A stretch of DNA of 64,000 nucleotides from an uncultured Actinomycetes bacterium (GCA_963813635.1 CAWEZO010000011.1:618220-682219), one strand, 5' to 3'. Positions 15,608-29,053 are shown, numbered from the stretch's first letter. A program made the numbers and translations. The notes: generated by a model not told the origin, from the sequence alone.

Positions 15608-17509
15608 GTGATGCGTCGCATCTCCCTGCGTTTCCTCGTGCCGATTGGCGCCGCCCTCACGCTTGGCGTGTCGACGTTTGTCGTTGTGCTCCCGACGCTC
15701 CCCTACGCGTCCACGCCGCCGGTCACGATCGATAACGTCGATCTCACCCCGGCAGCGCAGACCGTCACCCCCGGTTGGCAGGCCCAGACCGATACCACCG
15801 CCAACATGGTGGGCGTCTCGTGGCAGGGCAAGGCGCCGGCCGACTTCACCGTCGAGAAGCGTGATCCCCGCGGCCACTGGCACTCGCTCGCGCCGGTCGG
15901 CACAGGTGAGGACCCCGGAGTCGACCCCGGGTCGCGTGACGCGAAGTCGGCCCGGCGCCACGCCGCGACGAACTCGACCGAGCCGGTGTGGGTCGGCAAC
16001 GACACCACCGCCGTGCGGGTGAAGCTCGACCAGGGCACCGCCACCAACGTCGACCTCAAGGTGATCAAGACGCCGAAGGTCTCGACGAGCCCGCGGGGAG
16101 CGCGGACGCGCTGCCCGCGTGGCCCAACATCATCTTCCGAAACCAGTGGGGTGCAGACGAAGGCCTCCGCCTCCGCAATTGCTCGAGTCCCGACTACGAC
16201 GCACAGGTGCAGCTCGCAGTCGTGCACCACACGGTCAACAGCAACAACTACTCGCCGGGGGAGAGCGCGTCGATCGTGCGCGGCGTCTACGCGTACCACA
16301 CGCTCACGCTGGGGTACTGCGACATCGCATACAACTTCCTCGTCGATCGGTACGGCCAGATATTCGAAGGTCGCTTCGGGGGCACCGACCGGCCGGTGCA
16401 CGGCGCGCACGCGATCGGATTCAACACCAACACCACCGGCGTCGCGGCGATCGGCAACTACCAGGGGGTCGGTGCACCCGGGGAGCTGATCAGCGGCCTC
16501 CAGAACATCATCGCCTGGAAGCTCGCCGCCTCCGGTGTCGACCCGGGGAAGGCGACGCTCTACACGACCAACGGCAACGACAAGTTCGCTCCCGGTACCC
16601 AGCTCTGGGAGCCGGTGGTCATCGGCCATCGCGACACGTGGTTCACCGACTGTCCGGGCAGCGGGCTCTACGGTCGCCTCGGTGAGATCGCGGCGCCGGC
16701 GGCGGCGCGCGGTGATCTCGAGTATCCCCGAGCCGACACCATGGTGGGTGCCGGGGATCTTCCAGCCCGCGATCGCGACGCTCGATGCGTTCGGCGGCGT
16801 GCATCCGGCCGGCAGCGCGAGCGGCTTCCACCACACCGCGTACTGGCCCGGCTGGCCGATCGCGCGCGCGGTCAAGCTCAAGACGGCGGCGGGCGGTTAC
16901 GTGCTCGATGGCTGGGGTGGGATCCACTCGTTCGGGAATGCCGGCGGCGCCGGGGCGCTGACCGCGTACTGGCGCGGTTGGGACATTGCCCGTGACATCG
17001 TGCTCCGCCCGGCCGGCGGTGGATGGGTGCTCGACGGTTGGGGCAGCGTGCACGCCTTTGGTGGCGCGCCCGCGATCAACTCGGGCGTCTACTGGTACGG
17101 CTGGGACATCGCGCGCAGCCTCGTGGTGTTTCCCAGCGGCCTGGGCGGTTATGTGCTCGATGGATGGGGTGGGATCCACAAGTTCGGGAATGCACGCGCC
17201 GTGGGCGCGCATCCGATCTGGTACGGCTGGGACATCGCGCGCAGCATCGTGTGGCGAAGCGACAACCGCGGCGGCTACCTGCTCGACGGGTACGGCGGCT
17301 TGTATCCGTTCGCGGGCGCCCCGCCGATGGCCAACGTGCAATACCTCGGGCACGACTTCGCCGCGTCGGTCGCTCTCAACCGTGGCGGCAGCGGGGGATA
17401 CGTGCTCGATCGGTTCGGCGGCCTCTACCCGTTCGGGAACGCGCCGTGGGTGCGAGTGTCCCAGACCTGGTGGGGCTTCTCCCTCGGGCGCGGAGTCGCT
17501 ACCGGCTGA
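15608..17509 (+). CDS. Secreted N-acetylmuramoyl-L-alanine amidase (Amidase_2/PGRP-like) with six C-terminal Trp-rich repeats (frameshifts near 16095 and 16710)
   Basis: Signal peptide; VVHHT, DIAYNFLVDRYGQIFEGR, GAHAIGFN, GHRD..TDCPG (His/His/Cys Zn ligands); repeats GGYVLDGWGG..WDIAR. Confidence 0.85.
16770..17506 (+). repeat. Six ~42-codon coding repeats (GGYVLDGWGGxHxFG..YWxGWDIAR)
   Basis: Recurring gtgctcga(t/c)gg and tgggacat(c/t)gc strings at ~125-bp spacing. Confidence 0.9.
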
Positions 17510-17515
17510 CGCCGC

Positions 17516-18782
17516 TCACTCGTCGGGCGTCGACGCGACGATTGCGTATTCCTGCGCGCCGAAGAGCACCTCGTTGAGCCGTCGGAGTGCGGTGTTGATC
17601 TGCTTGACCGACGCGGGGGCATCGGCGGTCTCGTCGAGCAACGTCAGCTGGTAATCGGTGGCCGGTTCGTAGAACTCGAGTCGCACGTCGCGGAAGCCGG
17701 CGCGTTCGAGGAGGAACGTGAGCAGCGACGGGTGCAGGGGCCAGACGTGCGTCGGGTCAAGGATGTACGAGTTCCCCAGGACGATGAGCGATGCCGGATT
17801 CGGCGTCTCCGCGAGCAGGAGCCCCCCCGCCACGAGACGGGTCGCAGCGAGGTCGAGGAACGCGGTGAGCGTGTCGAAGGGGAGGTGCTCGACGAGATGG
17901 ATTGCCGTGATGGCGCCGTAGGAATGTGCCGGTGCGGCGCGGCAGGAACTCGACCGCGTCACCGACGCGTGCGTCGAGGCCGGCAGCGCGGGCTTCGACG
18001 ACCATCCCCGGGTCGAGGTCGAGGCCGGTCGCCTCGATGCCGCGCTCGTGGAGGACGCCCAGCAACTCGCCTCGCCCGCAACCCACGTCGAGCACAGGAG
18101 CGCGGCCCGCGAGGCGTTCGACATATCGCCGTTCGAATGTCGCGCGGACGTGCCGGGAATCGCCGCGGAAGCGTTGCTCGAACCCGACGTAGTCGAAGGC
18201 GCTCGCGGTTGCGGGGACCTCTCCCGGCGATGCGGCCGACGCCGCGGCGGACGCCGGTGCCGTCGCGGCGGGCTCGACCGCGGACGCTGCGGTCCGCGAG
18301 CGACGGTCGATCGCGTTCACCCGTTCCCGTAGCTCTGCGAAGCGCGCCGGGACGCCGTCGAGCCCGGCAGCCGGCGCGATCGCCGCGCCGAGCGCGTCGA
18401 GTGCATCGTGGAACGCCTGGAGCTCGCCCTTCATCAGCTCGAGATTGATGGTGAGCGACTGCACCTCGTCGTCCGATGGCAAGGTGTCGAGCGCGGCCCG
18501 GACCGCCTTCAACTCCCCGTGCATGAGCTCGACCTCGACTGCGAGCCGGTCGTGCTCGGTGCCGTGGCTTACGCGCAGCCGCGTCGCCGTCGCGTCCGCC
18601 GTGCGGTCGAGGAACCGCTGCCACAACGGCCGTGCGACCCGACGCGCCGCGCCCTTCGCGCCCCGCTTCTTCGGCTCGTCTGTGACGGGGTCTGCCTTGT
18701 CGTTGTCGGGCTGCGACTCCACACCGAGGTCGGTGCGGAGCTCGTCGACGAGCCGGCCCTGCAGGTCCGGGTGCGAAGTCAC
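17516..18782 (-). CDS. Coiled-coil plus SAM methyltransferase, glycan chain-terminator-like (frameshift near 17945)
   Basis: Heptad-rich N-terminus, then FDYVGFEQRFRG, VLDVGCGRGELL, HLVEHL, ETPNP, DPTH. Confidence 0.8.
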
Positions 18783-27161: not shown

Positions 27162-27163
27162 GC

Positions 27164-28360
27164 GTGGGCGCGGTGATCGAGGTCGACGAGGTCAGCAAGC
27201 ATTTCAAGCTCTACCGCGACAAGCGCCACATCGCTCAAGGAGCGTGTGATCCGATTCGGGCGGATGCCGCACGAAGAGTTCTGGGCGCTCCGCGACATCA
27301 CGCTGCACGTCGACCAGGGCGAGACGGTCGGTCTGCTCGGGCACAACGGTTCGGGCAAGTCGACGCTGCTCAAGTGCATCGCCGGGATCCTCCGACCGAC
27401 GAGCGGCACGATCCGCGAAGCGTCGGGCGTATCGCCGCCCTGCTCGAGCTCGGGTCCGGGTTCCACCCCGAGCTCACCGGCCGCGAGAACGTCTTCCTGA
27501 ACGGATCGATCCTCGGGCTCTCACGAGCGAGATCGACGCGGATCTTCGACGAGATCGTCGCGTTCGCCGAGATCGAGCAGTTCATCGACAACCAGGTGAA
27601 GCACTACTCGTCGGGCATGTACGCCCGGCTTGCGCTTCGCGGTCGCGGTCAACGTCGAGCCCGAGATCCTCCTCATCGACGAGGTGCTCGCGGTCGGCGA
27701 CGAGGCCTTCCAGCGCAAGTGCCTCGAGCGGATCCGAAGCGGTTCCAGCGCGAAGGGCGGACGATCCTGCTCGTGACCCACGCGGCCGACCTCGTGCGCC
27801 AGATCTGCGATCGGGCCGCGGTGCTCGACCACGGCGACATGGTCATGGTCGGGGAGCCGGCCGACGCCGTGCTTGCATTCCGCGACACGCTGCTCAAGCG
27901 GGGCATCGAGATTCCGGAAGAGGCGCGAGGGCCGGCTTGGCGCAACACGCTCGCCGTACGGATCACGGGCGCGGACATCGACTATCCCGACCCGGAGCGC
28001 GAGCATCTGCTGCCGAGTGAGCGGTTGCGCATCCGTATGCAGTTCGAGGCGCCCGAACCGCTCGACGACGTGGTGTTCGCGCTCAACATTCACGACCAGG
28101 ACGGCAATCTCATGGTGGGCACCAACACCGATGTCCTCGGTGCCGACCTCGAGACTGTTGCCGGCTCCGGCGAGGTCGTGTTCGATCTCGGACGCGTGCC
28201 GCTGCTCGACGGGATCTACGACGTCGCGTTCGGTGTGCACGACAAGTCGGGTGGCATCGAATACGACCATCGCGAGGGTGACGACCGCTTCCAGGTGCTC
28301 AACCCGACGCGCACCGTCGGACGAGTCGATTTCGCGCCGCAGGCGGAAGTGCACCTGGAC
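27164..28360 (+). CDS. wzt: Polysaccharide ABC transporter ATPase with Wzt C-terminal carbohydrate-binding domain (several frameshifts; no stop before the repeat domain)
   Basis: [40 protein letters not shown]-terminal GTNT...LLDGIYDV. Confidence 0.85.
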
Positions 28361-29053
28361 CGGGCACGCGCCGTGGTTCAGCCGCGCGCGGGGCTGACCG
28401 AGCGACGCATCCGGGCGCGCGTGCGCCAACGCGCGACGGGCAAGGTCATGGCGCACGGCGGCGCCCCTGACTACGGCTCGCCGTCGTTCTCCTTCGACAT
28501 CGCGCGCGACATCGCCGTCATGCCCGACGGCCAGGGCTATGCGGTGCTCGACGGCTGGGGTGGTGTGCACCTGTTCGGGAGCGCGTTCTACAAGCTCGCG
28601 AACCTGCCGATCGCCTACTGGCCGGGATGGGACATCGCCAACAGCATTGCGATCTCGCCATCCGGCAGGGGATTCGCCGTGCTCGACGGCTGGGGCACCG
28701 TGCACGCGGGGGCGACGCGCCTGCCATCACGCCCGCGTACTGGCAGGGATGGGACATCGCCCGCTCGCTCGCGATCAGCCCCGACGGCAAGGGTGTCTAG
28801 GTGCTCGACGGGTGGGGCGGTGTGCACACCGGTGGCTCGGCCGTCGGCCGCGGCTCGAGCGGCTACTGGCGGGGATGGGACATCGCGCGCGACCCGATCG
28901 TCACGCCGTCCAACGGCGGGTACGCCGTGCTCGACGGTTTGGGTGGCATCCACCGAAAGGGCGACGCGCCGGCGCCTTCGGTGTCGGCCTGGGGCCAGGC
29001 CATCGACCAGTGGTCGGCGTTGTCGTGGCGCGGCACCAGTCATTACCGGGTGA
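28361..29053 (+). CDS. Trp-rich repeat domain (about five repeats), currently in frame with Wzt; internal frameshift and TAG; 3' end uncertain
   Basis: FDIARDIAVMPDGQGYAVLDGWGGVH, YWPGWDIA, YWQGWDIAR, YWRGWDIAR; TAG at 28798-28800. Confidence 0.6.
   Translation, partial: RARAVVQPRAGLTERRIRARVRQRATGKVMAHGGAPDYGSPSFSFDIARDIAVMPDGQGYAVLDGWGGVHLFGSAFYKLANLPIAYWPGWDIANSIAISPSGRGFAVLDGWGTVHAGATRLPSRPRTGRDGTSPARSRSAPTARVSRCSTGGAVCTPVARPSAAARAATGGDGTSRATRSSRRPTAGTPCSTVWVASTERATRRRLRCRPGARPSTSGRRCRGAAPVITG

Follow-up and report, generated by a model that had tools for sequence, protein, structure and literature searches.

The stretch of DNA analyzed here, referred to as the window, comprises 64,000 nucleotides from an uncultured Actinomycetes bacterium (GCA_963813635.1, CAWEZO010000011.1:618220-682219; G000:C11:618220-682219 in our notation), whose genome spans 3.74 Mb in 14 contigs with a completeness of 88.5%. 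The GC content of the window is 65-73%. Two genes within it encode secreted proteins that close with tandem copies of the same ~42-aa repeat, with the consensus GGYVLDG[WF]GGxHxFG…YWxGWDIAR. Each repeat is predicted to form one blade of a previously unnamed six-bladed propeller domain of ~240-250 residues, and this module probably serves to target secreted proteins non-covalently to the cell envelope.

The first carrier is a secreted N-acetylmuramoyl-L-alanine amidase (15608..17509, +), with a hydrophobic N-terminus from position 15608, as read from the three-frame translation, and an Amidase_2 domain in its middle part (43.2 bits). Its module spans 16778..17503 (+), where a profile hidden Markov model (HMM) built from 10 units of ~42 aa each recognized six units scoring 35.4-78.0 bits. 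The gene contains two frame changes in the window, and the ortholog in G002, a same-genus genome used here as the reference for intact orthologs, is a single intact open frame of 634 residues (Amidase_2, 45.2 bits). The second carrier (23409..26165, +) is a 918-aa protein in a single open frame, consisting of a hydrophobic N-terminal segment, a Pro/Thr-rich linker, FG-GAP propeller repeats (FG-GAP_3, 93.8 bits; FG-GAP, 73.3 bits), a weak fn3-like stretch and a module at 25467..26159 (+) with five full units of 62.6-76.5 bits, preceded by a weak, degenerate first unit that begins near 25410. Its orthologs P0007 and P0018 are 95% and 82% identical over the module. These assignments bear out an earlier interpretation of the window made from the sequence alone (hereafter, the sequence-only reading), which had placed six repeats at the end of each protein (16770-17506 and 25408-26162) and had called the two proteins otherwise unrelated. 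As a side observation, the Pfam lists of two amidase carriers, P0081 and P0094, pair Amidase_2 with PF27503.1; this family probably covers the N-terminal domain of amidases of this type (window ~15700-16100), not the repeat.

Scanning 57,564 six-frame segments of the 3.74-Mb genome with the repeat HMM gave only five places that exceed 20 bits per unit, three of them in the window and one each on contigs C2 and C7. All other matches were single and reached at most 13.2 bits, so the repeats at these five places lie far beyond chance. The C2 carrier is a signal-peptide Peptidase_S8 protein (131.5 bits). The C7 carrier is a lipobox protein, split by a frameshift, with a partial Glucosaminidase match of 24.8 bits, which is below the cut-off; from its sequence it is probably a glucosaminidase lipoprotein. 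As read from translations, the carriers of this genome and of G002 possess a signal peptide, a lipobox or an N-terminal anchor.

The two window carriers are embedded in a set of glycan genes that the sequence-only reading had assigned to a Wzm/Wzt locus. This assignment holds: the components by which such a pathway is recognized were all located, namely an ABC-2 permease, an ATPase with a Wzt_C domain, one GT2 and four GT4 glycosyltransferases, and a methyltransferase. The left end is formed by the GT2 gene (8211..9563, +), whose G002 ortholog (L090:503-1858) matches Glycos_transf_2 with 62.7 bits. Unrelated genes, including one for a transaldolase, separate it from the first GT4-type gene (14434..15465, -), an open frame with high GC content at third codon positions whose G002 counterpart (L090:5645-6832, -) matches Glycos_transf_1 and Glyco_transf_4. 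The amidase gene is followed by a methyltransferase gene (17516..19118, -) with a long N-terminal extension and matches to Methyltransf_23/25/11; it is frame-shifted in the window and intact in G002 (487 residues; Methyltransf_23, 59 bits), and its product is a candidate chain terminator. Three further GT4 genes follow: a frame-shifted gene at 19659..20673 (-), with a G002 ortholog at L090:11968-12990 (-) that matches Glycos_transf_1 (108 bits); a gene at 20812..22008 (+), with Glyco_trans_1_4 and Glycos_transf_1 matches; and a gene at 21779..23338 (+), with Glycos_transf_1 and Glyco_transf_4 matches, the actual start of which probably lies downstream of 22008.

Downstream of the FG-GAP gene lie wzm (26250..27158, +), located by tblastn with the G002 Wzm and spread over three frames in the window, and wzt (27164..28390, +), also located by tblastn, which shows local frame slips and has lost its stop codon through a 2-base difference. 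The G002 Wzm matches ABC2_membrane (54.8 bits), and the G002 Wzt matches ABC_tran (84.2 bits) and Wzt_C (46.5 bits; cut-off 30.4). Next come a repeat-containing remnant (28431..29079, +; see below) and, at the right end, two genes for large membrane proteins with no Pfam match (29098..32216, -), the first of which aligns to a G002 gene (L001:713-2104). Housekeeping genes occupy the window from 32712 onward. The G002 stretch L090 is collinear with window positions 8198-24034. With respect to the product of the locus, the sequence-only reading had described a "methyl-capped" polysaccharide; the one basis for this term is the presence of the methyltransferase and of Wzt_C, by analogy with WbdD/Wzt_C systems. 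Separately, the N-terminal ~270 residues of the methyltransferase (17757-19118, -) have a heptad-like appearance and a weak DUF2730 match, and in this they resemble the coiled-coil rulers known from chain-length terminators.

Several genes of the locus are broken by dense single-base insertions and deletions (indels), namely wzm, wzt and the amidase, methyltransferase and one GT4 gene (window 26200-28400 and 15608-20700). Alignment to G002, in which Wzm and Wzt are intact, introduced 89 gaps in 4048 columns over window positions 24411-28407 and 144 gaps in 15920 columns over positions 8198-24034. We compared the region 26200-29200 with contigs from four public metagenome runs, each of a different study; one of the runs (X1) is possibly the source sample of the window itself. 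Among the 12 indel sites listed of the 25 in this region, the wzm/wzt sites at 26580, 26675, 27007, 27014, 27072, 27225 and 27535, as well as a 2-base insertion (CG) behind 28382, differed from the window in the contigs of all four runs, giving 8 of 12. Because these contigs depart from the window at the same sites, the frameshifts are most likely errors of this record or, at most, private changes, as judged from sequence comparison; they do not imply that the locus is dead in this lineage, and the record looks like an unpolished consensus of the long-read type. The same comparison disposes of a possible fusion of Wzt to the repeats that follow it, suggested by a window frame that reads through. 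The 2-base difference behind 28382 lies just upstream of the point at which the G002 Wzt stops, and therefore Wzt is not fused to the repeats; the two extra bases in the contigs of all four runs rule out the fusion further.

The sequence-only reading had also counted about five repeats after wzt. Repeats are indeed present there (28431-29079, ~4-5 units), but they do not constitute a carrier gene: the segment is 5'-truncated, has neither a start codon nor a signal peptide, and contains one frameshift and one in-frame TAG. Its sole blastn alignment is to L001 7181-6532, where the repeats of a G002 gene for a CAP-domain carrier are encoded (459-codon open reading frame (ORF), signal peptide, CAP domain of 36 bits, five to six repeats). 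On these alignments, the segment is what is left of the 3' end of a gene for a secreted CAP-domain protein and does not count as an intact third carrier. A DUF3653 match on the repeat of the G002 CAP protein (32 bits, with no single stretch passing) was dismissed as chance and is absent from the module-bearing proteins P0002 and P0003. Relative to G002, the window is without ~4.3 kb (L001 7182-11458) that hold a GT4 gene, a gene for a membrane protein of 736 aa and the 5' portion of the CAP gene, and without a second block of ~4.4 kb (L001 2103-6531) that encodes a membrane protein of 616 aa and contains an ORF resembling rve-type transposases. In G001, the nearest relative (94% identity), the sequence continues 237 bases further into the CAP gene until the contig ends. 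A misassembly at the junction (28407-28431) was rejected, as it is spanned by contigs of two runs from different studies, X1 and X3; contigs of X4 diverge there, and some runs show depth gaps over 28523-28825. The junction thus looks like a real deletion allele, and the arrangements with and without the deletion both seem to occur in nature.

In terms of sequence, the module resembles no characterized family, as the sequence-only reading had stated. Scans of Pfam and NCBIfam at E<=1 returned no family for the module (P0002, for example, has 0 Pfam families at this threshold), and a PDB sequence search with the module alone gave nothing better than E 0.5. Specifically, the NHL profile (PF01436) has no match in P0002 or P0003, the YWTD/LDL-receptor class B profile has no Pfam match and appears solely at the level of structure (Z 14-16; nidogen 1npe, 15.8), and LysM, SH3b, PG_binding_1, SLH, CWB2, LGFP, SPOR and choline-binding repeats have no Pfam or NCBIfam match in the module-bearing proteins. 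A PDB profile search with a 50-sequence alignment (A1) returned fn3 matches, which came from the N-terminal alignment columns and were set aside. The nearest ESM Atlas clusters are unnamed, with 28 of 30 lacking a common Pfam family, and we found no published description of the repeat in those portions of the literature that our searches could reach, including a text search for 6-letter strings of the repeat motif.

Structure prediction points to a propeller, in agreement with the sequence-only reading. AlphaFold2 supplied with alignment A1 yielded a model of the FG-GAP protein module (m4aca9130fc57) with a pLDDT of 92.5 and a pTM of 0.90; the single-sequence prediction had a pLDDT of 50.2. 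DSSP assigned five blades of three strands each; within a blade, the …IARGIxL strand comes from one unit, and the GYVLDG and GxHxF strands come from the unit that follows. The number six for the blades is taken from the repeat count and from the folds that the model matches. The top Foldseek hits were designed Pizza6 propellers and the PknD sensor (E 9e-6 to 7e-5, TM 0.55-0.64). Against 48,161 chains, VIA-align placed the PknD sensor first (1rwi_B; Z 17.6, rmsd 3.1 Å over 205 residues), followed by NHL domains (Z 16.4-16.9; TRIM2 NHL 16.9, Brat 16.8), the six-bladed lectin RSL (4csd_A, Z 16.1) and the nidogen YWTD propeller (15.8). On the strength of this model, the fold would be a generic six-bladed propeller that names no function.

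The module belongs to a large family. An exhaustive HMMER search of 1.84 billion representatives, clustered at 50% identity, found 1652 members at E<=1e-3, 1191 at E<=1e-10 and 591 at E<=1e-30, and a word-indexed search found 2508 proteins of 420-2000 residues among 8000 scored. Repeat count, module position and N-terminus were tallied with the repeat HMM on 243 returned proteins. Six units were the most frequent count (138 proteins), followed by ten (37) and five (30), with four in 1, seven in 10, eight in 13, nine in 7, eleven in 4, twelve in 2 and fifteen in 1. These counts correspond to one or two, rarely more, sets of six, the first unit often being too degenerate to score, and tandem modules of 10-15 units occur. 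In 198 of the 243 proteins the module is at the C-terminus; 31 have it at the N-terminus, directly behind the leader, and 14 have it at an internal position. By a crude hydrophobicity rule, as opposed to a trained predictor, 204 of the 243 start with a hydrophobic stretch free of charged residues; many of the other 39 begin within a domain, which makes them look truncated, and in at least two (P0010 and P0119) the rule missed a leader. The position expected by the sequence-only reading, at the C-terminus of secreted proteins, is thus the prevailing one.

The partner domains of the module were tallied over 120 listed carriers, with many of the links between accessions and names confirmed by source names in the same table. 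The partners were M23 (19), CHAP (12), GH18 (11), polysaccharide deacetylase (10), SpoIID (10), PQQ_2 (10), Peptidase_C39_2 (9), GH25 (5), FG-GAP (4), YkuD (3), Big_3_5-containing (3), Amidase_2 (2), DUF1906 (2), Invasin_D3 (2) and, once each, NAGPA, GH9, CAP, GH26, Kelch and fn3 only; 12 carriers had no other domain. Peptidoglycan-active domains (M23, CHAP, GH18, deacetylase, SpoIID, C39_2, GH25, YkuD, Amidase_2 and DUF1906) account for 83 of the 120. None of the listed carriers contains LysM, PG_binding_1, SH3b, SLH, CWB2 or LGFP, and none contains a kinase or other signaling domain. Stand-alone modules also exist (P0126, 241 aa). The carriers are thus secreted proteins and most are wall-active enzymes, in line with the surface-protein claim of the sequence-only reading.

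With respect to taxonomy, the best 80 of 491 relative-encoding stretches in a species-representative genome collection, ranked by similarity to the FG-GAP protein's own module, gave 77 loci, all of them titled metagenome-assembled genome (MAG). Their labels comprise Dormibacterota (28), Acidimicrobiia or families thereof (23), unspecified Actinomycetota (9), Chloroflexota (8), Solirubrobacterales/Thermoleophilaceae (2), Acidiferrales (1), "bacterium" (2) and Burkholderiales or Bifidobacterium (4). The last four (L004, L068, L008 and L047) show FG-GAP/wzm/wzt synteny of the Acidimicrobiia type with 57-62% module identity, and are probably binning or labeling errors. Within the order of the window's genome, 19 of 31 genomes contain a module match at E<=1e-3. 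Single genomes hold up to 35, 30 and 28 matches, to be read as matches and not as copy numbers, spread over many contigs. Arrays of 4-6 adjacent carrier genes, each with a six-repeat module, occur in Chloroflexota, Dormibacterota and Actinomycetes MAGs (L060, L066, L031 and L069), which suggests local expansion of a gene family with catalytic domains shuffled onto one module.

Taken together, the family size, the domain architectures, the export-type N-termini, the wall-enzyme partners, and the portability and expansion of the module are what argue for an envelope-targeting role. After export, the module would most probably attach non-covalently to a component of the cell envelope. In uncultured members of Acidimicrobiia, Dormibacterota, Chloroflexota and Thermoleophilia, the carriers, among them enzymes that hydrolyze or remodel peptidoglycan, proteases, CAP proteins and further surface proteins, would thereby stay at the wall. 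The target would be a wall glycan, either the peptidoglycan glycan strand or a secondary polymer; for Acidimicrobiia, the candidates include the glycan made by the neighboring wzm/wzt locus. A phage locus fits a ligand exposed on the cell surface: the IMG/VR contig L089 encodes a 632-residue ORF (7977-9875) whose N-terminus carries three to four diverged units (22.9, 32.4, 24.3 and 5.2 bits; tblastn E 5e-17, 38% identity) and which has no PHROG or Pfam match. It is flanked by a gene for a tape-measure protein (PhageMin_Tail, many tape-measure PHROGs) and one for a tail protein (phrog_1887). In siphophages, the position after the tape-measure gene is usually that of the distal tail protein, which often bears carbohydrate-binding modules, and binders of the host surface are common there.

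A number of points weigh against the envelope-targeting role. Its functional steps are all drawn from architecture and context, and the export calls behind it came from the crude rule described above. The model started 30-40 residues late, such that the first two strands of the closing (sixth) blade are missing from it. The VIA-align scores fall smoothly, from Z 17.6 to 13.7 over 50 rows, and the fold therefore gives a lectin no preference over propellers that bind proteins or act as sensors; the Trp, His, Asp and Arg conserved in each blade may have a purely structural role. Of the 120 listed carriers, 37 have non-wall partners or none (PQQ_2 10, none 12, FG-GAP 4, and others). The phage case is a single one: tblastn found no match in GenBank phages and one confirmed locus in IMG/VR, and support of the endolysin type is therefore almost absent.

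The sequence-only reading as a whole is partly supported: the propeller, the absence of a characterized family and the secreted carriers hold, and the ligand that it named is one candidate. It had proposed that the propeller is a lectin for the methyl-capped secondary wall polymer made by this locus and exported by Wzm/Wzt, as a dedicated anchoring system, which we regard as rather unlikely. The amidase and FG-GAP carriers do lie inside the locus both in the window and in G002, the Wzt carries Wzt_C, and a methyltransferase gene is present. Moreover, a wzm gene of at least 46% identity occurs within ~6 kb of the module match in 22 of the 77 loci, and in most of these it directly follows the FG-GAP carrier and precedes wzt. 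The same adjacency is found in G004, G013, G019 and G025, which represent three further families of the order, and a further carrier follows wzt in L013 and L068, as the CAP carrier does in G002. Ten relatives with a wzm ortholog and a weak or no module match have no FG-GAP homolog in the ~6 kb upstream of wzm. However, the 77 loci were ranked by the module of the FG-GAP protein, and the synteny consequently speaks for that gene and not for the module. Outside the FG-GAP syntenic loci, a distant wzm is nearby only in L023 and L064, by our estimate about the level of chance given 6-17 ABC-2 genes per genome. A Wzm match exists in 31 of 31 relatives (at least 46% identity in 23, counting G000), and five of them (G012, G017, G020, G023 and G024) combine a wzm ortholog (46-57% identity) with zero module matches. 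Two of the five carriers of this genome are on other contigs, and carriers elsewhere are scattered over many contigs, with the arrays of 4-6 genes in Dormibacterota and Chloroflexota. The co-occurrence of module and wzm/wzt that the sequence-only reading called for is thus seen for the FG-GAP carrier in 22 of the 77 loci, and most carriers lie elsewhere. In favor of the locus glycan, a tally of 141 neighboring ORFs at 35 non-syntenic loci, which had no control set and drew on related MAGs that are not independent, gave as the commonest families GT4 (7), methyltransferases (7), GT2 (5), response regulators (5) and UDP-sugar dehydrogenases (4). Against it, finally, the partner domains would be equally expected of a binder of peptidoglycan itself.

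Such a binder, recognizing for example the GlcNAc or MurNAc of the glycan strands and replacing LysM, SH3b or PG_binding_1, is possible, though less likely than not; the position in the wzm/wzt locus would then be incidental or specific to the FG-GAP gene. The dominance of peptidoglycan-active partners without any classical peptidoglycan-binding domain is consistent with it, as are the spread of the module over phyla that are unlikely to share secondary polymers and the presence of RSL among the top structural matches. GlcNAc-binding propeller lectins exist, such as tachylectin-2 and PVL. On the other hand, proteases and CAP, FG-GAP, PQQ and Ig-like proteins are also carriers, a breadth that would rather be expected of general surface anchors; the conserved position beside wzm/wzt in the operon would go unexplained; and no sequence or specific structural link to a known peptidoglycan binder was found. 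We consider it improbable that the propeller is instead a domain for protein-protein interaction, oligomerization, sensing or autoinhibition with no wall binding. Its best structural matches, the PknD sensor and NHL domains, have proteins, RNA or as yet unknown molecules as ligands, and the carriers with no other Pfam domain and the stand-alone modules would suit such a function, but the listed carriers lack kinase and signaling domains, wall enzymes dominate the partner set, and many paralogs per genome that share one module fit a common, abundant ligand better. It is more improbable still that the carriers are secreted weapons whose module targets the walls of competitors and not that of the producer. 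The arrays of adjacent lytic-enzyme genes that share the module, and partners typical of bacteriolytic enzymes (M23, CHAP, GH25 and amidase), would be in keeping with this, whereas L,D-transpeptidases, SpoIID proteins and deacetylases act in building or modifying the wall of the producer itself, and one carrier in this genome is a lipoprotein.

The envelope-targeting role has precedents in two non-covalent systems, SLH domains with the pyruvylated secondary wall polymer of Bacillus and its relatives, and CWB2 domains (PF04122) with PSII of Clostridioides difficile. In those systems, as here, one non-covalent module is found on many unrelated secreted proteins, including amidases, proteases and CAP-like proteins, with many paralogs per genome and some carrier genes beside polymer-synthesis genes. 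The present module differs in having no sequence relation to either (Pfam, E<=1), in its predicted propeller of ~240 residues as opposed to the three-helix SLH domain and the alpha/beta CWB2 trimer, in a link to a polymer locus that is seen for part of the carriers only, and in a ligand that is putative. LysM, SH3b, PG_binding_1 and LGFP domains are likewise N- or C-terminal additions to M23, CHAP, amidase, GH25, deacetylase and L,D-transpeptidase enzymes, but they are small (40-80 residues), adopt other folds and have no Pfam match in the module. A C-terminal sorting signal of the LPXTG, PEP-CTERM or T9SS CTD type was considered and rejected, in view of the N-terminal and internal modules (31 and 14 of 243) and the length of ~240 residues.

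Structurally, the closest counterpart is the propeller of PknD from Mycobacterium tuberculosis (1rwi), which is also extracytoplasmic, from an actinobacterium and composed of six blades of ~42 residues (Foldseek E 3.5e-5, TM 0.60, in addition to the VIA-align score above). The sequence identity is 13-17%, the module has no NHL match in Pfam, and the PknD propeller is the sensor of a kinase, a domain that the listed carriers lack. The RSL/AAL lectins (4csd), which have a conserved Arg/Glu/Trp sugar site between blades, share six blades and one Trp-rich motif per blade (rmsd 3.4 Å over 203 residues), but the identity is 5%, there is no Pfam match, and the score is no better than that of non-lectin propellers.

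Wall-targeting modules are a known principle, and none is known to use a propeller fold. In abundant lineages that have escaped culture, much of the secreted and wall-active proteome bears this module, and the carriers are now annotated by their catalytic half alone or as hypothetical proteins. With a name for the domain, at least 1652 protein clusters could be better annotated, and the envelopes of Dormibacterota, Acidimicrobiia and Chloroflexota, about whose wall polymers next to nothing has been described to our knowledge, would become more accessible to study. Were the ligand a secondary wall polymer, the module would represent a new anchoring principle, with a fold unused by any known anchor, as well as a specific affinity probe with which to stain or capture these uncultured cells. 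The furthest-reaching proposal, also a doubtful one, is that of a third kind of non-covalent anchoring beside SLH and CWB2, in which a propeller lectin would be matched to a Wzm/Wzt-exported, end-capped polysaccharide and the propeller would have been borrowed by phages. If this were true, dozens of paralogs per genome would organize the cell surface of major uncultured soil lineages.

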